Assembly (NCBI GenBank): GCA_049287525.1
Contig: JBAQFZ010000008.1
Location: 23,541 to 87,540 of the forward strand
Direction: 5' to 3'
Length of the DNA: 64,000 nucleotides
Origin: Halobacteriota archaeon
Lineage (GTDB): Archaea; Halobacteriota; Syntropharchaeia; Alkanophagales; Methanospirareceae
Shown in pieces: positions 18,196 to 59,300 of this stretch. The position numbers and the translations under genes are program-made. The notes under the pieces were generated by a model. The model was not told where the DNA came from. It did not search any database and saw only the letters and a list, made by a program, of their open reading frames with translations. How positions within the stretch are numbered: the first letter of the stretch is position 1; every line of letters begins with the position of its first letter.

Positions 18196-18220
18196 AAGTC
18201 GTATTCGAATTCTTTTCCCG

Positions 18221-18354
18221 TATTTGTATAGCTACATAAAAAACCACAAGATTAACACAAGAAATTATAATTATTTTGGAATAAAGTAGCCAATAGTGTA
18301 CTGAAACTATGTTAATTTTATTCTTTTTCTCGTGAAAATCTGTGTTAATCTGTG
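18221..18354. mobile_element. MITE-like repeat copy 1 (short variant lacking the hairpin module)
   Basis: Shares gtatttgtatagctacataaaaaaccac[a/g]agat.cacaagattaacacaagaaatt... and the right inverted end tgtgttaatctgtg with the copies at 26.1, 29.6 and 43.6 kb. Confidence 0.6.
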
Positions 18355-18416
18355 TCTGTCTATAATTTATTTTCTCTTCTGTTTATTCAAAGACAATTAG
18401 CCAGCCGGATAAAACT

Positions 18417-26126: not shown

Positions 26127-26333
26127 GTATTTGTATAGCTACATAAAAAAACCACGAGATTTCACAAGATTAACACAAGAAATTGAGATTATTAGCGGAT
26201 AAAGTAGCCAATAGTATACTGAAACTATGTTAATATCATTCTTTTTCTCGTGAAATAAACCCATTCTGGGTTTTAGAAGAAACCCGTAGGGTTTCCTGTG
26301 GACGTGGGCAGAGCCCACGAGTGTTAATCAGTG
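26127..26333. mobile_element. MITE-like repeat copy 2 (full, with two hairpins)
   Basis: Left module ccacgagatttcacaagattaacacaagaaattga; hairpins gaaacccgtagggtttc and cgtgggcagagcccacg; right inverted end gtgttaatcagtg. Confidence 0.6.
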
Positions 26334-26424
26334 TCTATAAAGACGCGGGCTTATCTGGTGCTTAGAATATGGTATTTCGCAAGAGCCAAGAGCTATACAC
26401 CTATGTTAGTTAAGTTCGTCCTCA

Positions 26425-27190: not shown

Positions 27191-29476
27191 ATGGAAACAA
27201 AAAAGAGAGGAGGAACGATAACAGGTATTGCTCTGGTAGCGATTATGGTCGCTTCAGTTATGCTCGCAATGGTCGCGAGCACCGCAGCGTACAGCACAGG
27301 CGGAAAATACAATATCATTAACAACTCAACAACACCACCTGCACAACAAGTACTGACAGGACAGGATCTGAAATTCATAAAGGGTACTGATGCTCTTGAG
27401 TGGACATCGGCACCGACAGTAATGCAGTATGGATCTAATGGTAACCAAGAACATACGTATCCATCGGCAGTGGGAGACGGTGGGGACTTTTACATCGACA
27501 ACGTGGACTGGGGTACGTCAGGTACATTTTATGTGAACGGTGGTGCGACCGTAAGTGCTGCCTACTGCGCACAGCTTTCTGTCAGTGACCCAAAAATACC
27601 GCTGCAGCTAAAAGTAGGTGATAAGATAGTGACGTCACTTGCCAAGGGTACGCCAGGATTTCACACAGATGTTGGAGGTAGAAATCTGTTCCCCGAGGAT
27701 GGTGTAGACCTCGTGATTATGGGTCCCAACGGGCAGATAACAACAAAGAACGGCCAGAATTTTAAAGGCATAAATGTGAGTACATTGACCGATTATACAA
27801 GTGTGAACTTTATTAACACCACAGGCTGGGACGTAGGGCATTACACCTTCCAGGTGAAGACCAAACCGGAAAACGCATGTGGCCTGGATACACAGAGCAC
27901 ACTGCGGGAGATGAACATAATAAAAGCTGCGGTAACAATAACAGCGGAGCCGACAGAAGTAGCGGAACTCACAACCGTGAAACTCACAGTAACTGGTGTT
28001 GCCGGTACGCCGATAAATGTACTAGAAGACACTTTAAGTCCGCATGCTTATTTCCCTGCAGGGCTTAATGACAACCAGGGACCAAAGAATAACAATTTCA
28101 CTGATACAATAGACAGTGACGGCACGCGGACCTACGCAGTGGAGTTCAACGATACCGGTGCATACACAATTAAAGTGACGGATTTAAACGATCTATCAGG
28201 AGATACATATGACACCGTTGACATTACCGTTACAGAGAAGGGAGTTACCTTTGACGTGCCAAGCACAGTAGTTATCGGGCAGCGGTTTACGATAAAAGGG
28301 ACTGCAAATACAGGCAATATGGTTACGGTTGCCGTGGATGACGAGGTGGTGTTGAAACTGAATAATATCGTAATAGACGAGAACAACGAATTCTCGGAGG
28401 AGATAGATACAAGCGCAGATGCAGCACCCGGGGCATTCAAGCTTCCAGGTTCTGTGAGGTTGAAGGCGTACATTGACTATCCAGGGGGCACTGGTCCGGT
28501 ACTCCAAGGCATAACAGACGATGGCTCGTTTGCGATATTAATGACAAAAGGCGAATTAACGGCTGAACTGTCAACAAAAAGCGTAGCGAAGGGCGATGAT
28601 TTCACAATCATCGGTAAGGCAAAAGGCTCAAAGAACGTGAATATATTGATAGTCGCACCAAAGGGTTTCAGTGGTTCAAACATAGAAACAAACGGTAAGG
28701 AGATGTATTACACATCAACGTCTGTCACAACTACCGATGATAGTTTCTACAAGAAGATCACCGTGAACGATGACGTGAACTCGGGCAAATATCTCGTGAT
28801 GATACTCAGCGCGGGAAGCGACGACAAATGGGGAAAGAGCGGTTACGATACACTTTATAACCCAAGTAAGCCAACGGATACTAATACCGCTTTAGGTCAG
28901 TATACATTAAGCACCAGGACACAGGAAGGGATGTTGGAGATAGTAAAAGATATGAGTGCTTTAAGCGATGACCTCCTGTGGATAGGGCTCGTAAACGTGG
29001 AATCGCCGTATGTGATTCTTAACCCAATAGCAGAGGTGAACATTGGAGAACCTATGGAAGTAACAGGAACTACAAACAGAAAGGATGGATATACCATAGT
29101 TGTCACAGCTAAAGGACCGACAGAGCTAACTCCGGCGACCGTACCGGTACATAACAGTACGTTCAACGCAACGTTAGACACTTCAGATGCTAAGGTAGGC
29201 GTGTACGTAGTGACGGCAGACGATGGTGATGGTAATACAGATACAGAGCAGGTGAGCATAGGAGGAGCAGCAGTACCGGCTGAGACGCCACTAACATCGC
29301 CAGCAGCAGAAACACCAATGCCAACAGCAGAAGCACCAACGCCAGCAGCAGAAACACCAATGCCAACAGAAGAAGCACCAACACCAACACCAAAACCAGT
29401 ACCAGGATTCGTAGGTGTGTTCGCCATTGCAGGCTTGTTAGCGGTTGCCTACCTATTACTGAGGAGAAGGAAGTAG
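27191..29476 (+). CDS. PGF-CTERM surface (S-layer-like) glycoprotein
   Basis: Signal peptide; 700-aa beta-rich ectodomain; Thr/Pro-rich linker AETPMPTAEAPTPAAETPMPTEEAPTPTPKP; PGF motif + TM + RRRK at the C-terminus (archaeosortase A sorting signal). Confidence 0.8.
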   Translation: METKKRGGTITGIALVAIMVASVMLAMVASTAAYSTGGKYNIINNSTTPPAQQVLTGQDLKFIKGTDALEWTSAPTVMQYGSNGNQEHTYPSAVGDGGDFYIDNVDWGTSGTFYVNGGATVSAAYCAQLSVSDPKIPLQLKVGDKIVTSLAKGTPGFHTDVGGRNLFPEDGVDLVIMGPNGQITTKNGQNFKGINVSTLTDYTSVNFINTTGWDVGHYTFQVKTKPENACGLDTQSTLREMNIIKAAVTITAEPTEVAELTTVKLTVTGVAGTPINVLEDTLSPHAYFPAGLNDNQGPKNNNFTDTIDSDGTRTYAVEFNDTGAYTIKVTDLNDLSGDTYDTVDITVTEKGVTFDVPSTVVIGQRFTIKGTANTGNMVTVAVDDEVVLKLNNIVIDENNEFSEEIDTSADAAPGAFKLPGSVRLKAYIDYPGGTGPVLQGITDDGSFAILMTKGELTAELSTKSVAKGDDFTIIGKAKGSKNVNILIVAPKGFSGSNIETNGKEMYYTSTSVTTTDDSFYKKITVNDDVNSGKYLVMILSAGSDDKWGKSGYDTLYNPSKPTDTNTALGQYTLSTRTQEGMLEIVKDMSALSDDLLWIGLVNVESPYVILNPIAEVNIGEPMEVTGTTNRKDGYTIVVTAKGPTELTPATVPVHNSTFNATLDTSDAKVGVYVVTADDGDGNTDTEQVSIGGAAVPAETPLTSPAAETPMPTAEAPTPAAETPMPTEEAPTPTPKPVPGFVGVFAIAGLLAVAYLLLRRRK

Positions 29477-29518: not shown

Positions 29519-29556
29519 TTGTGGGGGTGTTTTTTTTTAATCCCCTTTTTTTATTT
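29519..29556 (+). terminator. putative terminator (G/C stem with oligo-T tracts)
   Basis: gtgggggtgtttttttttaatccccttttttt follows the surface protein stop codon. Confidence 0.45.
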
Positions 29557-29899
29557 TGTATTTTTATAGAACCGCGAGATTACACAAGATTAACACAGAG
29601 GGAAAAAGTGGAAGATACGACTGAAAAGTGGCTTTATAGGGACTTAACACAAAAGATTATCGGTGTAGCGATGGAAGTGCATCGTGAATTAGGCACTGGC
29701 TTTCTTGAATATGTTTATGAGGAGGCTTTATGTTATGAGCTAAATTTGGGAGAGATTCATTTTGAAAGACAGAAAGAACTCGATAAGTTAGAGATGAAAA
29801 GAAGAATCTTGTGAAACAAACCCTTTCAGGGTTTTAGAAGAAACCCGTAGGGTTTCCTGTGGACGTGGGCAGAGCCCACGATGTGTAATCTTGTGGTTA
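29553..29899. mobile_element. MITE-like repeat copy 4 carrying a truncated GxxExxY gene between its left end and hairpin module
   Basis: Left end accgcgagattacacaagattaacacagag; right end hairpins plus the inverted end gatgtgtaatcttgtggtta. The internal ~220 bp differ from the other copies and encode the GxxExxY fragment. Confidence 0.55.
29608..29814 (+). pseudogene. GxxExxY family protein, C-terminally truncated remnant
   Basis: A GTG start with GAGGG upstream gives ...IIGVAMEVHRELGTGFLEYVYEEALCYELNLGEIHFERQKEL, then terminates early relative to ~125-aa family members. Confidence 0.4.
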
Positions 29900-30014
29900 T
29901 AAAAGGAGCTAAACAAATACGAGCTTTTTATTCACTAATAAATATTATTCCTGCTCTTACAAGCGAAAAAAAGGATTATATTATGCTGCTAAGTTCATAT
30001 AATTAATTAAATTA

Positions 30015-30086
30015 GCCCCAGTGTGGTAATGGAAATCCATTGGGCCTGCGGAGCCTAATATCCGGGTTCGATTCCCGGCTGGGGCA
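30015..30086 (+). tRNA. tRNA-Arg (anticodon GCG)
   Basis: Manual cloverleaf: 7-bp acceptor GCCCCAG/CTGGGGC, D-stem TGGT/TCCA, anticodon stem TGGGC/GCCTA, loop CTGCGGA, T-arm CCGGG-TTCGATT-CCCGG, discriminator A; no encoded CCA. Confidence 0.8.
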
Positions 30087-30107: not shown

Positions 30108-30887
30108 TCAAATCAATTCAATTTTGAACACGCGCGCGAAATTGCGCTCTATTGCTGCGTCCACGGACTCGAACTCGAGCTTCTTTTGCCGTGCTATCTC
30201 TTCGTACACCACCTTTACGTGCTGTGGCACATTCCTTTCTTCCGCTACATCAGGAGAGAGATAAGGTGCATCTGTCTCTGTAAACAAATAAGAAAGCGGT
30301 ATTCTATTCGCGACCTTCTTCATGCTCTTGCTTCGCACTATTGATGCAGGCAGCGAGATGTAATAACCTTCTTCACATATCAGTGCCGCAAGCTGCGGCT
30401 TGCCCGTGAAGCAATGAAAAACCGCTTTCGGGATGTCCGCATCCGAAACGAGCTTCAAACCGTCCTCTATCGCTTCGCTGCCCGTACCCCGCAGATGAAG
30501 CACAACCGGTAAATCGAGCTCCTTCGCAAGCTCAAGAAACTCTTCAAATACTGCTCTTGTACGCTTTATCTTTAACGGGTCGCGTACCCGGTGGTAGTCA
30601 AGCCCTATTTCGCCTATGCCCACTATTCTACTTTTGTTCTTGCTTATGAACTCTTGATAATCCTCTATCTCATGGGCTGTTCGGTCTGCCACGTGTATCG
30701 GATGTAGCCCAAGCGAAACGAATACGAAGCCGGTATGCAATTCTGCAAGTTCTAACGCCTTCTTTGCATCTTCCGGGTCCACGCCACTTGTGACCACGCC
30801 CTTTAATTCCTGCTTGCCCGCCTCTATCACCTGCTCACGGTCCGTGTCGTAATCCGCAAACGTCAGATGGCAGTGTATGTCTATCAT
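30108..30887 (-). CDS. tatD: TatD family metal-dependent hydrolase/DNase
   Basis: MIDIHCHL N-terminus; conserved His/Glu/Asp metal ligands; 259 aa. Confidence 0.85.
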   Translation of the reverse strand: MIDIHCHLTFADYDTDREQVIEAGKQELKGVVTSGVDPEDAKKALELAELHTGFVFVSLGLHPIHVADRTAHEIEDYQEFISKNKSRIVGIGEIGLDYHRVRDPLKIKRTRAVFEEFLELAKELDLPVVLHLRGTGSEAIEDGLKLVSDADIPKAVFHCFTGKPQLAALICEEGYYISLPASIVRSKSMKKVANRIPLSYLFTETDAPYLSPDVAEERNVPQHVKVVYEEIARQKKLEFESVDAAIERNFARVFKIELI

Positions 30888-30932
30888 TTTAATCTCCTTA
30901 AACTGATTAGGAGTTTTATAATGATAAACAAG

Positions 30933-30968
30933 ATACAGGATACAGGATACAGGATGCAGGATACAGGA
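30933..30968. repeat. heptamer array (CAGGATR)x5, left flank of four-helix-bundle gene
   Basis: caggatacaggatacaggatgcaggatacaggagg; its final unit supplies a GGAGG RBS 7 nt before the ATG. Confidence 0.6.
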
Positions 30969-30973
30969 GGGAA

Positions 30974-31354
30974 TTGATGGGTATTCAGACGTATAATGAC
31001 CTGGAAATCTATCAGTTAAGTCATGAGCTGGCAGTTGAAATACATAAGCTGAGCCTTAGCCTCCCGAAAATCGAGTTATACGAAGAAGGGAGCCAATTGA
31101 GGAGATCAGCTAAGGCAATCCCGGTGAATATCGTTGAGGGATTTGGCCGCCGCCGATACAAAAATGATTTTATCCGATTCCTCACTTTTGCTCTGGCATC
31201 CTGCGACGAAACAAAAGAGCATCTAAAAATACTGCGTGAGACCGAAGCTCTCACTGATAATGATATTTTTGATAACTTTATACAGAAGTACGAAGAATTA
31301 GGGCGAAAAATCTACACTTTCATTAAAGCTGTGGAATCTGGTCATAAATCATAG
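30974..31354 (+). CDS. four-helix-bundle protein (family often found in 23S rRNA intervening sequences)
   Basis: DLEIYQLSHELAVEIHKLSLSLPKIELYEEGSQLRRSAKAIPVNIVEGFGRR is a typical signature. ATG at 30977 (track lists TTG at 30974). Confidence 0.65.
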   Translation: MMGIQTYNDLEIYQLSHELAVEIHKLSLSLPKIELYEEGSQLRRSAKAIPVNIVEGFGRRRYKNDFIRFLTFALASCDETKEHLKILRETEALTDNDIFDNFIQKYEELGRKIYTFIKAVESGHKS

Positions 31355-31400
31355 TCATGTATCTTGCATCCTGCATCTTGCATCTTGCATCTTGCATCCC
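31350..31400. repeat. inverted heptamer array (GCATCYT)n, right flank of cassette
   Basis: tcatgtatcttgcatcctgcatcttgcatcttgcatcttgcatcc; it is the reverse complement of CARGATG units. Confidence 0.6.
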
Positions 31401-31420
31401 AGCAGCCAAACATCCATAAA

Positions 31421-32440
31421 ATGAGATACGTAACCTTCTCCCGGAATGTATTCATACCGGTAACGAACGTATGCCGGAATGCCTGTGCGTACTGTGTGTA
31501 CCGTGCTCGCAGTCCCGACGCCGCTTATTTAGTGCGTAAGGCGGATTTTTTCGCACTCGTGAATAGAACAAAACTAGAAGCAACCGAAGCGCTTTTTACG
31601 GCAGGCGAGAAGCCCGAACTCGCCAACCCCGGGTTTTTCACGTGGCTTCATAATGCTACCGGCTGCTCTACCCTTGTCGAATACACGAAAGAGCTGTGTA
31701 AACTTGCGATTACGCATGGATTACTGCCTCATTGTAATCTGGGCGTATTGAGCGCGGACGAACTCGAAGCGTTACGAGACGTGAATGCCTCTATGGGCTT
31801 GATGCTCGAAACCACGGCAGAGCTCGATGCGCATAAGAACTCGCCGGGCAAAGTGCCGGAAGAGAGATTGAAGATGATTGCAGAAGCAGGAAAGCTTAAG
31901 ATTCCGTTCACTACTGGCTTGTTGATTGGCATAGGCGAGACGCCAGAGGACCGCATCCGTTCTCTGGAAGCTATTAAGTCGTTACATGAGATATACGGAC
32001 ATATCCAGGAAGTTATTATCCAGCCCTTCGTGCCCAAACCGTTCACGCAGATGGCAAACACGGGCTCGCCTAGCTTTGAGGCATTGAAAGAAGCTGTACG
32101 TGCGGCGAGAAGGATATTGCCAGCGGAAATCGCGATTCAGGTGCCCCCTAATTTGACCTCGCCACGTGAATTAATAGAACTTGGTGCTTCGGACCTGGGT
32201 GGCATTTCAGAGCGGACTATTGACTATATAAATCCCGAATCGCCATGGCCTCGTGAGGACGAGCTCAGGCAGCTAGTTTATCCGTTTTTACTGCGAGAAA
32301 GATTGCCGATATATCCCGGCTTTATCAAAAAGGGCTGGTATAGTGAGGAGATACGTCCTTTGATAGAGCGATATGCGGGTGAGGACGGGTTGAGAAGAAT
32401 CCATAATTTCATTAAAGATGTGGAATTTGGTCATACATAG
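31421..32440 (+). CDS. cofG: 7,8-didemethyl-8-hydroxy-5-deazariboflavin (FO) synthase subunit 1, radical SAM
   Basis: MRYVTFSRNVFIPVTNVCRNACAYCVY carries the CxxxCxxC cluster motif. The track ORF start at 31364 reads through the upstream repeat array and is rejected. Confidence 0.85.
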   Translation: MRYVTFSRNVFIPVTNVCRNACAYCVYRARSPDAAYLVRKADFFALVNRTKLEATEALFTAGEKPELANPGFFTWLHNATGCSTLVEYTKELCKLAITHGLLPHCNLGVLSADELEALRDVNASMGLMLETTAELDAHKNSPGKVPEERLKMIAEAGKLKIPFTTGLLIGIGETPEDRIRSLEAIKSLHEIYGHIQEVIIQPFVPKPFTQMANTGSPSFEALKEAVRAARRILPAEIAIQVPPNLTSPRELIELGASDLGGISERTIDYINPESPWPREDELRQLVYPFLLRERLPIYPGFIKKGWYSEEIRPLIERYAGEDGLRRIHNFIKDVEFGHT

Positions 32441-32478
32441 ATCATAGTCCTGCATCCGGCATCTTGCATCCTGCATCC
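32441..32478. repeat. second copy of the inverted heptamer array after cofG
   Basis: atcatagtcctgcatccggcatcttgcatcctgcatcc is near-identical to 31350-31400. The preceding ~45 nt (ttcattaaagatgtggaatttggtcata) duplicate the 3' end of the four-helix-bundle gene. Confidence 0.6.
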
Positions 32479-32517
32479 TAACGGCTATACAAATACAATT
32501 AGCTATATTTATCATTC

Positions 32518-41324: not shown

Positions 41325-41481
41325 GGGGAAAGATTTTATTGATTACATTTTCCATTATTAATTTCAATCTCGTGATTGCTGCTGAATTGGTTATAAATGC
41401 CGCTGGCTGGACTGTATCACATGTTAAATGGCTGGGCATGTCCTGAAAGTCCTTTTAACCTCCCGGATGCAACAATTGATG

Positions 41482-43620: not shown

Positions 43621-43833
43621 GTATTTGTATAGCTGATGTAAAAACCACGAGATTTCACAAGATTAACACAAGAAATTGAAATTAATAATGGATAACGTAA
43701 TCAATAAAGCACTGAAATTTGGTTACTATTATTATTATTCTCTCGTGAAATAAACCCATTCTGGGTTTTAGAAGAAACCCGTAGGGTTTCCTGTGGACGT
43801 GGGCAGAGCCCACGATGTATAATCTTGTGGTTA
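43621..43833. mobile_element. MITE-like repeat copy 3 (full, with two hairpins)
   Basis: gtatttgtatagctgatgtaaaaaccacgagatttcacaagattaacacaagaaattgaa ... gaaacccgtagggtttc ... cgtgggcagagcccacgatgtataatcttgtggtta. Confidence 0.6.
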
Positions 43834-43906
43834 GCTAAACAAATAAAAAAAATAAAAAGGGATAAGTTTTGGGTTATCCCCGGTATCTAGCTCTTTTATT
43901 GCTTTT

Positions 43907-52449: not shown

Positions 52450-52812
52450 TCACGCTAATCTAATAGCGGGAATCCAATCGCTATATCTTCTCCCGTTTGC
52501 ATCCACAAACTCCGTGCAGGTTATGAATCCCGTGGAAGTTGAATGATTACCGGTATGATGAATCTGCGGATAAGAACCTGTTTCTATGACGTAGGTGTAT
52601 TCATTGTTTTTATACAGCGTGACAGAAGGAGTAATTGTTATGTTATGCCAGTCGCTCGAATAGCCGTTCCCGGTGCCACTTGCTATCAAGTCGCCATTTT
52701 CATATATCTTGATAGACTCGGTGTGCCCACCAGTGCCTGCACATGGATAGGTGTACACCCTGCTAAATCTGATGTCGTAAGACGGTATGATTTTGCCGTC
52801 GTGCTTGCCCAT
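52450..52812 (-). other. detached C-terminal domain ORF of surface-protein paralog A
   Basis: MGKHDGKIIPSYDIRFSRVYTYPCAGTGGHTESIKIYENGDLIASG... is about 85% identical to the last 120 aa of the intact paralog at 56371..59433. Confidence 0.55.
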
Positions 52813-52884
52813 GATGCTTGGATATGGGTTAGGTGGCGAACCTGTGTCAAATATTTTCTCTTCCGGGGGTTTAATGTAATTATT

Positions 52885-55800
52885 TCAGGATTCCATCAGT
52901 GGATAATAATCTTTATCGGGATCTATGATGTATGGATTATCCCAAATACCATCATTATTGGCATCCGTGGAAGTGAAATTATGCCAGTAGTTGCCGAGAT
53001 AGTTTGTGTAAGTACTACCCATGTAAGTGTAGTTTATTTTTTCGGGTGAGTTCCAGATGTTTGTTGATTTGTAGGAATAAACATTTTCGGTGTTGTTTAT
53101 GAAATTGTTGAGATATATTTTGTTGCTGTTTGAATACCAGATGGAGATGCCGTAATGGTTGTTTGAGGAGCAATTGTTATTTGAAATGCTATTGTTGTTA
53201 GAATCCAAGAAGAGGTAGATGCCATTCCGGTTGTTTGAGCAGTCGTTGCTCGATATGCTATTGTTGTTAGAATCTGAGAGGTAGATGCCATCTGAGTTGT
53301 GTGAGCAGTTATTGTTCTTTATGGTAATGTAGGAGGAGTAAGCGGTTTGTATGCCGATACTTGCATTATTTAAGTTCTGATTTTCAACTAAAATGTTTTT
53401 GCAATTAATGAGTATGACCTGACCTGCACCATCAGGAATTATTCCTCCTTCGATGCCCCTCCAGTAATAAACTGGTTTCCCATTCACTGTGTTGCTTTTG
53501 TCTATCTCATGCTCGTAATGGGTTGGTAAATAACCCCGAATAACTATTCCGTTCCCCAGCATGATATTACCTGTTAATTTGTTGGTGCTTGAATACGAGA
53601 GGTAGATGCCATTCCCGCTATTATTTTCTGCCGTGTTATTTGCTATTGTGCTCCCGCTTGATGACAAAAGTCTAATACCCTGGTAATGGTTAGAGTTTGC
53701 TATGTTATTGCAAATCTCATTACTGGTTGATAAGTTTAGAGAGATCCCGTGGTAGTCATTGTTTGAGGCGTCATTATCGTTTATCCTGTTGTTGTTTGAC
53801 TTCTTAAGGAGGTAGATGCCATCGACTCTGTTGTTCTTAGCCGTGTTGTTTTCGATGCTATTATTATTAGACGACCATAATAGAATGCCACTTTCATTAT
53901 TTGAATTGACAACGTTGCCTGTAATTGCATTGCGATTACTGGATTCGCGCAATCGAATTCCATCAAATTTGTTGTTATTTGCTGTGTTGTTTTCGATGCT
54001 ATTATTGTTAGATGACCATAATAGAATGCTGCCACCACCCGAGATGTTTGAGCAATTGTTGCTCGATATGCTGTTGTTGTTAGAATATGAGAAATAGATG
54101 CCATAGTTTTCGTTGTCCCCGGCAGTATTGTTTGTAACATTGTTATTATTACTAGATTCGTGTAACCAGATGCCATGTTTATTATCAGAGGCTAAGTTTT
54201 CTATTAAAGTGTTATTGTTAGATGCCCACAATAGAATGCCACTTTCATTATTTGCGTTGACTACGTTGCCTTTAATTGTATTGTGATTACTGGTTTCGCG
54301 CAATCGAATTCCATCAAATTTGTTGTTATTTGCTGTGTTGTTTTCGATGCTATTATTGTTAGATGACCATAATAGAATGCTGCCACCACCCGAGGTGTTT
54401 GAGCAATTGTTGCTCGATATGCTGTTGTTGTTAGAATATGAGAAATAGATGCCATCGTTTTCGTTGTCCCCGGCAGTATTGTTTGTAATATTGTTATTAA
54501 TAGATTTGTATAACCAGATGCCATATTTATTATCAGAGGCTAAGTTATCTATTAAAGTGTTATTGTTAGATGACCACAATAGAATGCCACTTTCATTATT
54601 TTGCATTACGACATTATTAGTTATCCAGGAGTTATTGGATTTGTAGAGGTATATTCCATAAAGACCATTTTGAACTGTTAGCCCAGAAATTGAAGTGTTA
54701 TCCACAGTAATAAATATACATGATTGAGCAGTATTGGCTGCTTGTATTATAGAATCCCCATTTGGGGCATAGATTGTTAGAGGTTTATTTATTACCAGGT
54801 TCTCATTATAAGTTCCAGGATAAACTTCTATTGTGTCGCCGGGCATAGCAGCTTCCACTGCCTCTTGTATAGTTAGATATTCTTCGGGAACACAGATCTT
54901 TTTTGGGACGTGTGTCTTTAATTTGATAAGAGTGAGATTGCTTGCCGTATCATCTTCAGGCCATAATAGTGGATGCTGTGGATTCGGGTAGAAGTTTTCT
55001 GAATATTCAACTATTTTTGGAAAAGAGTAATCACTTAATTCTCGAATGGAGATTCTACTATCACCATCAAGGTCTGCAGCTCCCCACAATCCCTGTACAA
55101 TATAATAAGTAAATACGCCATTTTTCAATGCACTTGCCCATATTCCTGTTTCATTCATTCTGCTGGATGCTAATACCATACAATTGGCTTTTTCAAGGTC
55201 CATAGCGAATCCATCGAGTTCATACGTATTATACGTTTCTGTTGCCTCGCTTATTTGATATGGAGTGAGAACCCCTCCACTATAACATGCACTTAAAATT
55301 GCTACTGCTTTCTTTGCTTTCACCTCACCAATCCATTCTTCAAGTTCGTCATCTATTATCTCAGCGTCAAAAACTCTTAGTGACTCGTCAATACCATCAG
55401 CCTCGTCGCCATTATGATCAAGTGTATCATTATCTCCATGTCCGGAGAAAAAGAATAGACAGGTATCCTCCGTACCAGCGTTATTAGCCATCCACTGTAT
55501 CGCATTCCTGATGTTTGCCTTTGTTGCACTTTCATTAACTAAAAATCGGATATGGCTCGCCTCCCAATTATCTGATGCTCGAGTGAGAACATTGTATATA
55601 TCATGTGCATCCTGATACGCGTATACAGATGTAGCTCCAACTATAACAGCCCAATATTCCTCTGCTGGAGTGACAGTAGCTTCTTCGAATGTTATGCCGG
55701 TATAATTAGCATTTAAGGAGATGCCCTCGCCCTCAATTTCCCCACAGACCGACCCGTTGAAAAACAATCCAAGCATAAGCATCAGTCCTATAACGAAAAT

Positions 55801-55893
55801 CGTCGCAATCTTACCCAGTAAGCCTGTTTTTCTTTCCTCGGGTCCTCTTATCCAATTCTTCATAGCCGGTTTTCGTTGAGAATTCTTTTTCAA
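52885..55893 (-). CDS. secreted legumain-like (C13) peptidase domain + PbH1 parallel beta-helix repeat protein, paralog A (C-terminal domain separated by stop)
   Basis: Signal/TM; His-Gly FFFSGHG and Cys ILSACYSGG catalytic dyad of the caspase/legumain fold; over 20 Asn-rich 23-aa PbH1 repeats; a TGA where the paralog reads through. Confidence 0.6.
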   Translation of the reverse strand: MKKNSQRKPAMKNWIRGPEERKTGLLGKIATIFVIGLMLMLGLFFNGSVCGEIEGEGISLNANYTGITFEEATVTPAEEYWAVIVGATSVYAYQDAHDIYNVLTRASDNWEASHIRFLVNESATKANIRNAIQWMANNAGTEDTCLFFFSGHGDNDTLDHNGDEADGIDESLRVFDAEIIDDELEEWIGEVKAKKAVAILSACYSGGVLTPYQISEATETYNTYELDGFAMDLEKANCMVLASSRMNETGIWASALKNGVFTYYIVQGLWGAADLDGDSRISIRELSDYSFPKIVEYSENFYPNPQHPLLWPEDDTASNLTLIKLKTHVPKKICVPEEYLTIQEAVEAAMPGDTIEVYPGTYNENLVINKPLTIYAPNGDSIIQAANTAQSCIFITVDNTSISGLTVQNGLYGIYLYKSNNSWITNNVVMQNNESGILLWSSNNNTLIDNLASDNKYGIWLYKSINNNITNNTAGDNENDGIYFSYSNNNSISSNNCSNTSGGGSILLWSSNNNSIENNTANNNKFDGIRLRETSNHNTIKGNVVNANNESGILLWASNNNTLIENLASDNKHGIWLHESSNNNNVTNNTAGDNENYGIYFSYSNNNSISSNNCSNISGGGSILLWSSNNNSIENNTANNNKFDGIRLRESSNRNAITGNVVNSNNESGILLWSSNNNSIENNTAKNNRVDGIYLLKKSNNNRINDNDASNNDYHGISLNLSTSNEICNNIANSNHYQGIRLLSSSGSTIANNTAENNSGNGIYLSYSSTNKLTGNIMLGNGIVIRGYLPTHYEHEIDKSNTVNGKPVYYWRGIEGGIIPDGAGQVILINCKNILVENQNLNNASIGIQTAYSSYITIKNNNCSHNSDGIYLSDSNNNSISSNDCSNNRNGIYLFLDSNNNSISNNNCSSNNHYGISIWYSNSNKIYLNNFINNTENVYSYKSTNIWNSPEKINYTYMGSTYTNYLGNYWHNFTSTDANNDGIWDNPYIIDPDKDYYPLMES

Positions 55894-56123
55894 ACCTTTA
55901 CCCTCTCCTTCACAAGTTCCACTTTTGAGAACTTAAAACTCATCTCCGCAACTGAAGAAGGACTTAATCTCTCTTTTGCATCCAGTATCTCTATACCAAT
56001 TATTTCGTTATTTTTATCAAAGTCAATGATTATCCCTTCTCTGATCTCCTCGCTTATTTCATATTCCCCTTCCCTAAATTTTATATACATCGCATCCGCT
56101 TCAGGGTCGTATCTTATTTCCAT
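55890..56123 (-). CDS. DUF2283 family protein (putative antitoxin)
   Basis: MEIRYDPEADAMYIKFREGEYEISEEI is the DUF2283 signature. Confidence 0.5.
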   Translation of the reverse strand: MEIRYDPEADAMYIKFREGEYEISEEIREGIIIDFDKNNEIIGIEILDAKERLSPSSVAEMSFKFSKVELVKERVKV

Positions 56124-56127
56124 TTTC

Positions 56128-56364
56128 TCACCTCCTTAAATACCTCCTTGGGTCAGCCCTATATGCCGAAATAACAATTATTTCTTCCCCATCCTTTTCA
56201 TAAATAACTCTCAAAAGTTTATCATCAAACACTCTATGTGCTATTTTCCGATTACCATATCTATTAACGACTTCTATTGGATTCTTTATTGTCATTTCCA
56301 CTTCCTTTTTACTAATTTTCCGCTCCTTTAATTGCTCTTCTGCATGTTTGTAATATTTTATCAT
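56128..56364 (-). CDS. DUF4258 family protein (putative toxin)
   Basis: 78 aa; MIKYYKHAEEQLKERKISKKEVE...; paired 4 nt from the DUF2283 gene. Confidence 0.5.
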   Translation of the reverse strand: MIKYYKHAEEQLKERKISKKEVEMTIKNPIEVVNRYGNRKIAHRVFDDKLLRVIYEKDGEEIIVISAYRADPRRYLRR

Positions 56365-56370
56365 TCTTTA

Positions 56371-59300
56371 CTAAAGAAACAACTTAATAGCTGGTATCCA
56401 GTCATAATAAATTCTCCCATTAGCGTCAATGAATATATCGCAAGTGATTGTTCCCATGCCATTGGCTACTTCTAAGCTCTCGGTATGGTGAATCTGCGGA
56501 TAAGAGCCTGTTTCTATGACGTAGGTGTATTCATTGTTTTTATACAGCGTGACAGAAGGAGTAATTGTTATGTTATGCCAATCGCCTGCATAGCCGTTCC
56601 AGGTGCCGCTTGCTATCAATTCGCCATTTTCATATATCTTGATAGACTCGGTATGCCCACCAGTGCCTGCACATGGATAGGTGTACACCCTACTAATTCT
56701 GATGTCGTAAGACGGTATGATTTTGCCTTCATGTCTGCCCATGATGCTTGGATATGGGTTCGCAGACGAACCAGTGTCAAATATCTTCTCCTCTTCAGCA
56801 GGTTTAACATAATTCTCCCAGGGCATAACCAGTGGCTGGTAGTCCTTATCCAAATCTAAATCTATGATGTATGGATTATCCCAAATACCATCATTATTGG
56901 CATCCGTGGAAATGAAATTATGCCAGTAGTTGCCGAGATAGTTTGTGTAATTACTACCTTTATAAGTGTATATTATTTTTTCGGGTGAGTTCCAGATGTT
57001 TGTTGAATTCTCGGAATAAACATTTTCGGTATTGTTTATGAAATTGTTGAGGTAGATTTTGTTGCTGGTGGTGTTCTGAAGGACAATGCCTCCAATGCTG
57101 TTGCCTATATTGTTTCCGGTAACAGCATTGCGGGTAGAATAGTTGAGGAATGAGATGCCGAGTTCGTTACCGGTGACTTCATTGTCAGTAATTGTGTTGC
57201 CATCAGAATACTCGAGGATGGAAATACCCATGACGTTGTCGCTAATAGTATTGCCGGTGATGGCGTTGCTGTTAGATTCGTATAGAGAAACGCCACCCCA
57301 TTCATTGATGAGGTAGTTGTTCTGTATTCTTGAGTTACTGGTGTTGAAGAAACCAATACCTACGAAGTTGTTTATAAGATTCAAGTCTTTTACTGTGATA
57401 TTGTCGCAGGAGATGCAGTAAACTGTGCCTGCGTTCGAGGACGAATCAATGACATTACCAGAAGCGCCTACAAGGTAGTAAATTGGCTTTCCATCTACGA
57501 GGTTGCTGGTATCAATGTCGTTGTTAAAGTCTGAGTAGCTATCGCCATCAGTTCCAAAGTTCCAGAGATTACCCATCATCAAATTATTCCTTAAAGTATT
57601 GTTGCTGGAATCCACCACATAGATGCCACTTAGGCTGTTGTTACTGGCATTGTTGTCTGTAACTATGTTGCTGTTTGATGCGTTAAGATAGATGCCACTC
57701 TCTCGATTGTTATCTGCCGTGTTGTTTGCGATTATGTTCTCGTTTGATGTCCAAAGTCCAATACCCTCGTAATAGTTAGAGTTTGCAATGTTATTGCGAA
57801 TCTCATTACTGGTTGAAAAGTTTAAAGATATACCGTTGTAGTCATTGTTTGAGACATAATTATCAGTTATCCGGTTATTGGCGGACTCATTGAGATAGAT
57901 GCCATTATCTCGATTGTTCTCTGCCGTGTTGTCTGCGATTATGTTCTCGTTTGATGACAAAAGTGCAATACCCTCGTAATAGTTAGAGTTTGCAATGTTA
58001 TTGCGAATCTCATTACTGGTTGATGAGTTTAGAGATATCCCGTTGTAGTCATTGTTTGAGACATAATTATCAGTTATCCGGTTATTGGCGGACTCCTCGA
58101 GATAGATGCCATTCTCTCGATTGTTATCTGCCGTGTTGTTTGCGATTATGTTCTCGCATGATGACAAAAGTACAATACCCTGAGCGAGATTGTTTAAGGC
58201 CTCGTTATTGGTTATTTTATTGTTGTTTGAGCCAAATAGGTATAGTCCAAAAAAACCATTTTGAAATGTTAGCCCAGAAATTGAAGTGTTATCTACAGTA
58301 ATGAATATACATGGTAAAGTCCGATCAGCTTGTATTATCGAATGCCGAGCTCGGGCATTTATTATCAGTGGTTTATTTATAATCAAGTTCTCATAATAAG
58401 TGCTAAGAAAAGTCCCAGGATAAACTTCTATTGTGTCTCCGGGCATAGCAGCTTCCACAGCTTCCGGAATCGTGCGATATTCCGCGGGAACACTGATCTT
58501 TTTGGGGACGTACGTCTTTAATTTAATAAGAGTGAGATTGCTTGCCGTATCATCTTCAGGCCATAATAGTGGATGCTGTGGATTCGGGTAGAAGAATTCT
58601 GAATATTCAACTGTCCTTGGAAAAGAGTAATCACTTAATTCTCGAGCGGAAATTCTACTATCACCATCAAGGTCTGCTGCTCCCCACAATCCCTGTACAA
58701 CATAATATGTAAATACGGAATTTTTCAATTCAAATGCGATCCATCCAATTTCATTCATTCTGCTGGACGCTAATACCATGCAATTGGCTTTTTCAAGGTC
58801 CATGGCGAATCCAAATCCATCGAGCTCATTCGACGTTTCTATTGCCTCGCTTATTTGATATGGAGTGAGAACTCCTCCACTATGGCATGCCTCTAAAATT
58901 GCAACGACTTTCTTTGCTTTCACCTCACCAATCCATTCTTCAAGTTCGTCATCTATTATCTCAGCGTCAAAAGTAATTAGTGACTCGTCAATACCATCAG
59001 CCTCGTCACCATTATAATCAATTGTATCATTTTCTCCATGTCCGGAGAAAAAGAATAGACAGGTATCCTCCGTACCAGCGTTATTAGCCATCCACTGTAT
59101 CGCATCCCTGATGTTTGCCTTTGTTGCACTTTCGTTAACTAAAATTTGGATATGGCTCGCCTCCCAATTATCTGATGCGCGAGTGAGAACATTGTACATA
59201 TCCCGTGCATCATGATACGCGTATACAGTAGTAGCTCCCACTATAACAGCCCAATATTCCTCTGCTGGAGTCTCAGTAGCTTCTTCGAATGTTATGCCGG

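Follow-up and report, generated by a model that had tools for sequence, protein, structure and literature searches.

A 364-nt repeat of an ANME-1 archaeon is probably the relic of a compact insertion element built around a GxxExxY gene

When a short repeat contains part of a protein-coding gene, has a non-coding element captured a gene fragment, or has a gene-bearing element lost part of its own gene? This question is raised by a 364-nucleotide (nt) element, here called copy C, in a 64,000-nt stretch (hereafter the window) of contig JBAQFZ010000008.1 from a Halobacteriota archaeon. The original prediction was that of a miniature inverted-repeat transposable element (MITE) carrying a truncated GxxExxY gene as cargo. 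Our analysis indicates, with a probability that we put at roughly 70%, that copy C is instead a non-functional, internally deleted form of a "GxxExxY cassette", a compact (~0.45-0.5 kb) insertion element of ANME-1 archaea (Methanophagales). The intact element consists of a single gene for a 128-amino-acid (aa) protein, predicted to be a Cas4/RecB-like PD-(D/E)XK nuclease, between inverted arms made of ~10-nt units. The copy at 29.6 kb is in itself an ordinary relic.

The 68-aa open reading frame (ORF) of copy C has, as predicted, a GTG start codon and a GAGGG sequence resembling a Shine-Dalgarno motif (29598-29602). It scores well above the hidden Markov model cut-offs of TIGR04256 (57.8 bits; cut-off 35) and PF13366 (54.8 bits; cut-off 22), and GFLEYVY, which corresponds to the GxxExxY motif, is present near its N terminus. 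However, it covers only profile positions 1-48 of ~116, and both a complete core and the length of family members (~116-128 aa) are lacking. The ORF was thus rightly described as truncated, but it does not end prematurely. In it, residues 1-59 are joined directly to the 9 native C-terminal residues (KLEMKRRIL), with the stop codon TGA of the family still in place, codons 60-119 being absent through a clean in-frame deletion of 180 nt (..ERQKELD/KLEMKRRIL). The possibility that the ORF is full-length, which had been raised with the prediction, can be dismissed, as the comparison with full-length homologues shows this internal deletion instead. The deleted segment carried the PD-(D/E)XK core residues D74, E84 and K86 (P0184 numbering), which hardly vary, if at all, across the family. 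Since the catalytic core residues are deleted, the product of copy C, judged from its sequence, cannot be an active nuclease, and the copy represents a gene remnant.

The origin of this remnant is indicated by L162, a full-length element on a JGI metagenome contig, at a locus unrelated to the window. At the nucleotide level, copy C and L162 are ~94% identical from the outer module through the left arm to nt 177 of the ORF. A 180-nt gap follows, then 100% identity across the final 33 nt of the ORF, an insertion of ~65 nt with three hairpins in copy C, and finally the right arm and outer module, which align again. The same 180-nt gap is seen against L161. Copy C is collinear from end to end with L162 save for the deletion and the hairpins and is therefore a deletion derivative of a gene-bearing element. 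In agreement, its left-arm sequence is found directly upstream of full-length GxxExxY genes in L065, L066, L068, L156, L161 and L162, and its outer left module aligns with those of L161, L162 and the other window copies, namely A, B and D (Table 1).

The claim that a MITE-like repeat family is present was borne out, with four copies and one isolated fragment in 64 kb, and forms with and without the gene fragment coexist when copy C is aligned with A, B and D. Copy C has 28 nt of the left arm (93%) and 71-89 nt of the 3' end (95-96%; E values of 1e-28 to 1e-37) in common with A and B, but its interior is different from theirs. With 11 occurrences in the window, the arm unit CACRAGATT far exceeds the 0.98 expected from shuffles. 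Such common termini around a non-coding core, together with interiors that are evidently exchangeable (four combinations of interior and hairpins occur), are also what would be seen if a pre-existing non-coding MITE had captured an unrelated GxxExxY fragment that replaced its core. Nevertheless, the arms flank full-length genes at many loci, the stop codon of the gene lies inside the right arm, copy C is collinear with L162 through both arms, and lineage-specific arms flank the gene in most of the distant members of the GxxExxY family. Capture is thus largely refuted and very improbable, and the direction originally proposed is reversed: A, B and D are non-autonomous siblings with common arms and a non-coding core.

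Conservation of the core of A, B and D (GGATAAAGTAGCCAATAGTRTACTGAAA...) extends to an element (L004:11240-11300) of a different ANME-1 species, whose TatD protein is 81% identical. A likeness by eye between this core and a decayed GxxExxY N terminus (MDNVINKALKFGY versus ..EKIIGAAY..) had no statistical support and was dropped.

All full-length close relatives of the element (L065-L072, L156, L161 and L162; 68-90% protein identity) have one common layout. In each of them, AACCACGAGATTACACGAGATTAACACAG lies ~10-15 nt before the start codon, the stop codon is located inside the first unit of the right arm, and ATCTTGTGA.AATCTGTGTAATCTGTGGTT is present at the end; ATCTTGTGA(A) ends nearly all full-length ANME-1 copies examined. 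We extended this analysis to 74 GxxExxY loci from a metagenome scan, mostly 45-60% identical to the query. An inverted flanking repeat with z >= 4 relative to shuffles was observed at 58 of the 74 loci, as compared with 4 of 207 neighbouring control ORFs, and the only two controls that reached z >= 6 turned out to be another GxxExxY gene and a four-helix-bundle gene (23S_rRNA_IVP). Among 55 loci, the tandem period of the arms was 9 nt in 31 and 10 nt in 21 (52/55). The sequence of the arm unit varies with the protein lineage (CGCAGATT, CGCGAATGAA, GCGAATTAA, CACGAAGGA and CACGGAG), and all of these units retain a CRC..A(T/G)-like core; arms of this kind, in lineage-specific versions, are found at GxxExxY genes of both bacteria and archaea. 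A matching arm layout was also found in a cultured strain of Bacteroides finegoldii, in which the cassette lies between radA and the next gene. To judge by these sequences, the arms that flank GxxExxY genes are native gene termini rather than those of a MITE that captured a fragment.

Closely related elements occupy many unrelated sites, including the Wzm/Wzt and ExbB/DUF2149 junctions, a site upstream of a precorrin methylase-like gene, the CCG/FAD-binding and Metallophos/cupin junctions, and four sites in the window. Cassettes reside in very short operon spacers, the next start codon following 4-20 nt past the arm. None of 80 GxxExxY loci sampled was in non-coding (rRNA-like) surroundings, and we found no statement in the literature searched that GxxExxY proteins ride in rRNA intervening sequences (IVSs). 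For the four-helix-bundle proteins, for which the original prediction had made the same claim, such a location is documented (PMC4990558, PMC11270868).

The intact protein is abundant. ANME-1 data contain at least 120 distinct clusters of intact 128-aa proteins at 90% identity, and the GxxExxY/PF13366 family as a whole comprises 19,163 clusters at 50% identity (E <= 1e-3). The ratio of nonsynonymous to synonymous substitution rates (dN/dS) between pairs of full-length copies ranged from 0.06 to 0.18; these values and the number of intact clusters argue for an intact gene that is functional and under purifying selection. The arms are nearly identical even between copies with saturated synonymous sites. 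A first AlphaFold2 model from a shallow alignment was too weak (predicted local distance difference test score, pLDDT, of 59) and was replaced by one from a diverse alignment (pLDDT 94.8), in which the protein is predicted to adopt a Cas4/RecB-like PD-(D/E)XK fold. A PDB sequence search gave nothing below E = 0.27, and no conserved Cas4-type Fe-S cysteine cluster was seen in GxxExxY alignments. Pfam lists the function of the family as unknown (PMC3424549). In the literature searched there was no description of GxxExxY function or of flanking repeats, although curated database comments may hold some. Assignments to other carriers were not supported either: a role as a defence system was rejected in the absence of a PADLOC match, and carriage by viruses was rejected as there was no PHROG match and no match of the arm pattern in IMG/VR. 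For plasmids, only 8 records matched, all of them non-mobilizable replicons. About 30 of the best 150 representative matches (P0305-P0310 and similar) are 250-295 aa long and contain two GxxExxY domains, which may reflect genuine fusion or neighbouring cassettes called as a single gene.

The gain and loss of cassettes can be followed at one operon junction, between a MotA/ExbB gene and a DUF2149 gene, at which ANME-1 populations form an allelic series. The junction is empty in L158 and L159, with a 13-nt spacer (TAA/ATAAAAGAAGAAA/ATG; junction sequence TAAATAAAAGAAGAAAATG). It contains the intact 128-aa gene with its arms in L156 and L157, an intact gene that runs to the contig end in L160, an in-frame deletion allele of 54 aa in L145-L154, the same arms around a non-coding core in L155, and a 29-nt arm-to-arm (solo-arm) scar, AACCACGGGATCTGTGTAATCTTGTAGGT, in L166-L173. 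The filled allele L160 and the empty allele L158 are 97.9% identical over 2372 nt, and their DUF2149 proteins are identical; the cassette was therefore gained or lost within a species-level population. Its borders are clean (AACCAC...GTGGTT), and AATAAA(A), present in a single copy in the empty allele, flanks the element. Similarly, at the unrelated Wzm/Wzt junction (L068 and L002), AAAAATGA or AAAATG is found on both borders. Since nearly all lineages are filled, the empty ExbB/DUF2149 allele may reflect precise loss rather than the ancestral state, a DNA-level event either way.

In one ANME-1 lineage (L174-L181), a UPF0175/DUF3368 toxin-antitoxin pair takes the usual place of the cassette in this spacer. 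Behind it come TGTGGTT, which corresponds to the final 7 nt of the right arm, and then the ordinary right flank. As the pair is joined to an arm remnant at the cassette junction, the same spacer has hosted two kinds of selfish module.

The derivative with the 54-aa ORF is conserved beyond its surroundings. Between lineages, it differs at 3 of 248 positions as compared with 59 of 604 in the flanks (p = 1.5e-6), and at third codon positions the figures are 1/55 and 21/118 (p = 0.0025); the protein is identical across lineages whose flanks are ~10% different. This points to gene conversion, re-invasion or constraint at the nucleotide level. The same conservation would fit a free-standing homing endonuclease gene, as would the position of a small, solitary nuclease gene between conserved host genes, the existence of filled and empty alleles at 98% identity and the occupation of this junction in many lineages. 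Such a nuclease would cut the empty allele at a specific intergenic site, so that repair copies the cassette, the arms being incidental or protective. PD-(D/E)XK homing endonucleases do exist, I-Ssp6803I being an example. However, close relatives are present at many unrelated sites, contrary to a single homing site, and neither iterated inverted arms nor dispersed non-coding derivatives are predicted by homing, which we consider unlikely.

The 54-aa allele also bears on whether the short products are dead. Homologues retrieved with the 68-aa query were mostly short ANME-1 proteins, which represent independent internal deletions of the ~128-aa protein that keep the N terminus and the C-terminal ..KRRIL before the stop codon. 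Their lengths are 105 aa (P0012), 71 aa (P0034 and P0036), 59 aa (P0016) and 54 aa (P0030, P0039 and P0043). Products of 54-71 aa, including the 68-aa ORF, might be domesticated, being kept as mini-proteins, for example as nuclease inhibitors, or as RNA with a host function. Several independent deletions are indeed in frame and retain the native C terminus, the 54-aa protein is invariant as described above, and the window ORF still has its start codon, GAGGG and native stop codon. Yet both the search and the gene calling are biased towards intact ORFs, and variants that are truncated or out of frame are likewise frequent (P0002-P0007, P0013, P0045 and P0055). Moreover, synonymous sites and the non-coding arms are conserved as well, so that the conservation is not specifically at the protein level, and the deletion junctions all differ, hence no common mini-protein is preserved. 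Domestication therefore appears quite improbable, and we read the 68-aa ORF as what is left of the nuclease gene of the cassette.

The chief alternative for the arms is that they act in RNA, in a manner similar to that of rRNA IVSs: the paired stem would be processed, making insertions in operons or rRNA harmless, and the element would spread by ordinary recombination and not by means of a nuclease. Consistent with this, single-strand folding pairs the left arm of copy C (29570-29598) with 29882-29898 (z = -5.2), the operon spacers occupied are very short, and the 248-nt derivative is conserved at synonymous sites too. On the other hand, a stem needs no tandem units with a period of 9-10 nt. 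Mismatches between arms show no G:U bias (81 sense-compatible, 85 antisense-compatible and 311 transversions), and the fold contains no bulge-helix-bulge motif. To our knowledge, archaea generally lack RNase III. A role in RNA would also leave the dispersed copies and the presence/absence alleles unexplained. We regard it as a possible but doubtful alternative. An RNA role and a DNA role are compatible, as RNA processing could make operon insertions harmless.

The copies exchange parts. The triple hairpin in the right arm of copy C is lacking at that point in L161 and L162, and the same point is occupied in A and B. Interiors of either type are found both with and without hairpins: gene-bearing without hairpins (L162) or with them (copy C), and non-coding with hairpins (A and B) or without (D). 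Furthermore, in A and D the left arm is of type 1 and the right end is of type 2, the latter as in L073 and L008. This implies either recombination between copies or a hairpin module that moves independently. Hairpin 3 (GACGTGGGCAGAGCCCACG) recurs just inside the right arms of other types of element (L073, L148 and L149), and the GC-rich hairpins may be a separate small mobile or recombining module. Arms elsewhere contain GC-rich hairpins at varying positions too: L074 has two, and L069 has one, in its left arm.

A 13-nt outer module, GTATTTGTATAGC, is present in the window at 18220, 26127 and 43621 (plus strand) and at 29920, 43846 and 32496 (minus strand), as well as at L013:17185 and L046:370-458. 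It borders differing types of arm, namely, those of GxxExxY elements, four-helix-bundle heptamers and the AAATCCCAA type in L013, and looks like a terminal motif common to several ANME-1 element families.

The data directly support the anatomy of the cassette, the derivation of copy C from a full-length element, periodic arms across the family, purifying selection, presence/absence alleles and graded decay. On this basis, we propose that copy C descends from an L162-like element, from which the 180-nt in-frame deletion would have removed the catalytic core, and that it gained the triple hairpin of ~65 nt in its right arm. The intact nuclease would recognise the iterated 9-10-nt motif in both arms and would promote the gain and loss of cassettes, at the DNA level, in short A-rich intergenic spacers. 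Copies would decay through internal deletion and recombine with one another. Because an active nuclease cannot be made from it, copy C itself would be inert and movable only with help in trans.

Several points weigh against this scheme. No target-site duplication was observed at the four window copies or at L065, L066, L070 and L071, and the direct repeats that were seen are A-rich, could be due to chance and are suggestive only. The empty ExbB/DUF2149 allele may result from host-mediated precise deletion between flanking repeats and not from an activity encoded by the element, and the excess conservation of the 54-aa derivative fits a function at the level of the host or of RNA equally well as mobility. 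The predicted fold is nearest to end-processing nucleases (Cas4, RecB and Dna2) and not to any known transposase, and we know of no chemistry by which a lone PD-(D/E)XK protein of 128 aa transposes DNA. The repeats of the Coxiella IVS form a stem that is processed by RNase III (PMC4990558). Finally, an empty allele of the window's own site was not found in the TatD relatives fetched from 62 genomes, because the synteny around TatD and tRNA-Arg is not conserved in the available relatives: among these relatives, TatD alone is syntenic. The TatD protein of the window is at most 82% identical to proteins of ANME-1 metagenome-assembled genomes, and exact-protein look-ups for it and for P0001 gave no match.

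The original prediction had stressed that the element lies next to tRNA-Arg(GCG), and the adjacency holds, as the tRNA starts 93 nt past the outer end of the element and 116 nt past its right arm. A specific link to the tRNA is not supported, since only one of the four window copies has a tRNA nearby, the other three lying elsewhere. An Rfam search found two tRNAs only in the window; copy C is flanked by an S-layer gene and tRNA-Arg and lies outside any 23S or 16S rRNA gene. Related elements are present near tRNA-Arg in two relatives, on sides and at distances that differ: L008 has a different GxxExxY relic upstream, and L046 has a tiny arm element (~90 nt) located 12 nt downstream of the tRNA-like 3' end. 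In L012 and L013, there is no related element at tRNA-Arg, and a different gene abuts the tRNA. Targeting of tRNA genes was rejected on these grounds, and tRNA-Arg is probably just a neighbour.

A cassette of a second type, with an intact four-helix-bundle (23S_rRNA_IVP) gene, lies ~1 kb from copy C in a non-rRNA context, as had been noted; tandem heptamers flank the gene on both sides in inverted arrays. The heptamer core, ACAGGAT, resembles the core of the GxxExxY arms, ACAAGAT, and in L109 both types of cassette have a CAC.AATT core in common. At 32394-32505 there is a second copy of the last ~16 four-helix-bundle codons, together with a heptamer array and the terminal module (alignment score 112, shuffle maximum 34). 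The cofG ORF reads into this remnant, from which its last ~15 codons and its stop codon are derived, and the match to the CofG profile ends at residue 322 of 339. Elsewhere in the window, 52551-59127 contains a pair of paralogous segments (~3.6-3.9 kb each; 91-94% identical) with internal tandem repeats of 69 and 207 nt.

Table 1. Positions of the repeat copies, of the parts of copy C and of neighbouring features in the window.
Feature	Position	Strand	Remarks
Copy D	18220-18366	+	Outer module, left arm (one unit fewer), non-coding core, no hairpins, type-2 right end
Copy A	26127-26341	+	Outer module, type-1 left arm, non-coding core, triple hairpin, type-2 right end
Copy C	29558-29921	+	364 nt, gene remnant inside; feature under study
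Copy B	43621-43846	+	Outer module, left arm, non-coding core, triple hairpin, right arm, outer module
Isolated 40-nt fragment	41335-41374	-	A/B-type core and one arm unit
Copy C, outer left module	29558-29569	+	GTATTTTTATAG, variant of GTATTTGTATAG[C]; inverted partner of 29907-29921
Copy C, left arm	29570-29598	+	AACCGCGAGATTACACAAGATTAACACAG, tandem ~10-nt units (CRCRAGATTA)
Copy C, remnant ORF (68 aa)	29608-29814	+	GxxExxY (PF13366/TIGR04256) nuclease; deletion junction 29784/29785
Copy C, innermost right-arm unit	29805-29816	+	AATCTTGTGAAA; holds stop codon TGA (29812-29814)
Copy C, triple GC-hairpin module	29817-29881	+	In right arm; AAACCC..GGGTTT, GAAACCC..GGGTTTC, CGTGGGC..GCCCACG
Copy C, right-arm terminal units	29882-29898	+	TGTGTAATCTTGTGGTT; inverted repeat of left arm; identical to right arm of L162
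Copy C, outer right module	29899-29921	+	ATAAAAGGAGCTAAACAAATACG; reverse complement is CGTATTTGTTTAGCT
Hairpin module in right arm, copy A	26253-26320		
Hairpin module in right arm, copy B	43748-43815		
Non-coding core, copy D	18259-18335		
Non-coding core, copy A	26177-26250		
Non-coding core, copy B	43670-43745		
PGF-CTERM S-layer protein gene	27191-29476		Local neighbour
tRNA-Arg(GCG)	30015-30086	+	Neighbour only, outside the element
TatD gene	30108-30887	-	
Four-helix-bundle cassette	30932-31428		
Heptamer array (GATACAG)x5	30932-30968		Four-helix-bundle cassette
Four-helix-bundle gene	30974-31354		PF05635/TIGR02436; intact
Heptamer array (ATCYTGC)x5	31361-31399		Four-helix-bundle cassette
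CofG gene	31421-32440		cofG ORF

Taken together, GxxExxY genes and apparently four-helix-bundle genes form cassettes with iteron-like inverted arms, which ANME-1 genomes gain and lose and which degenerate there into MITE-like repeats. The anatomy of the GxxExxY cassette suggests that these genes are the core of a widespread insertion element, of which we found no description. More tentatively, GxxExxY cassettes, and probably those with four-helix-bundle IVS proteins, might constitute a very large unrecognised class of compact mobile elements of bacteria and archaea, in which a Cas4/RecB-type nuclease of ~125 aa would act on the iterated 9-10-nt repeats of its own arms to enter and leave short intergenic spacers, rRNA IVSs would be the subset that landed in rRNA, and ANME-1 would carry active elements along with a MITE-like swarm. 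The combination of iteron-like arms, deletion derivatives and presence/absence alleles turns a huge anonymous family into a testable selfish-element hypothesis, for which our work suggests tractable hosts (Bacteroides finegoldii) and defined substrates (arms and empty sites). It also bears on the old question of whether rRNA IVSs and their ORFs are mobile, given that IVSs have long been suspected to be transposon remnants or mobile elements (PMC4990558 and hypotheses cited therein). For annotation, calls of a "GxxExxY protein" of 38-110 aa in ANME-1 are mostly relics, and cassettes in operons or fused to gene ends, as with cofG here, can distort gene models.

By analogy, the element would work most like a MITE with its gene-bearing partner or like a REPIN/RAYT pair, and its architecture matches that of ORF-bearing rRNA IVSs. 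The resemblance to MITEs comprises the small size, inverted termini, dispersed copies and termini in common with a longer gene-bearing element; for the family, insertion polymorphism is seen in relatives, and there are possible flanking duplications of 6-8 bp at two loci. Copy C in particular has no complete mobility gene, its arms and outer modules pair as inverted termini, and L161, L162 and other full-length gene-bearing elements have the same termini. In contrast to MITEs, the partner gene encodes no recognised type of transposase (DDE, HUH, serine or tyrosine), just a 128-aa protein modelled as a Cas4/RecB-like nuclease; in addition, target-site duplications do not occur consistently, each arm is an array of tandem units instead of a simple terminal inverted repeat, and the end types of A and D are mismatched. 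RAYT proteins are HUH Y1 (IS200/IS605-like) enzymes that act on REP hairpins. Like REPIN/RAYT systems, which are said to have been described by Nunvar in 2010 and by Bertels and Rainey in 2011, the cassette has a small gene with inverted short repeats that co-vary by lineage, and gene-less doublets are dispersed intergenically. However, GxxExxY proteins are not HUH enzymes and have a predicted PD-(D/E)XK fold, their repeats are tandem 9-10-mers rather than REP hairpins, and they are multi-copy (the at least 120 ANME-1 clusters), whereas RAYT genes are single-copy and domesticated.

Free-standing homing endonuclease genes likewise are lone nuclease genes between host genes, present or absent and conserved beyond their flanks, and the cassettes differ from them in their many unrelated sites, iterated arms and non-coding derivatives. 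Relative to Cas4/RecB nucleases, the 128-aa GxxExxY protein would correspond to the minimal core alone, and it has no CRISPR context. RNase III is not expected in an archaeal host, as opposed to the hosts of rRNA IVSs. The IVSs with S23p/four-helix-bundle ORFs of Coxiella and Leptospira are nevertheless alike in combining a small ORF with terminal inverted repeats of tandem units, and copy C also has terminal inverted repeats that form a stem around an optional small ORF. They differ in that the GxxExxY ORF encodes a predicted PD-(D/E)XK nuclease and not a four-helix bundle, in the many dispersed copies per genome, and in the location of the window element in an intergenic spacer, and of its relatives in operon spacers, rather than in rRNA. 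The GxxExxY cassette thus lacks the defining features of these systems, having no recognised transposase, no location in rRNA and no HUH enzyme. The parallel with Coxiella extends to detail: in its 23S IVS, three tandem copies of GACAGAT precede the four-helix-bundle ORF within the terminal stem, with RNase III cleavage at the first of them (PMC4990558), while the four-helix-bundle cassette of the window has GATACAG five times and the GxxExxY arms have an ACARGAT-like core. Internal ORF deletions are seen in both, of 176 bp in the Coxiella AuQ01 IVS (PMC4990558) and 180 nt in copy C.

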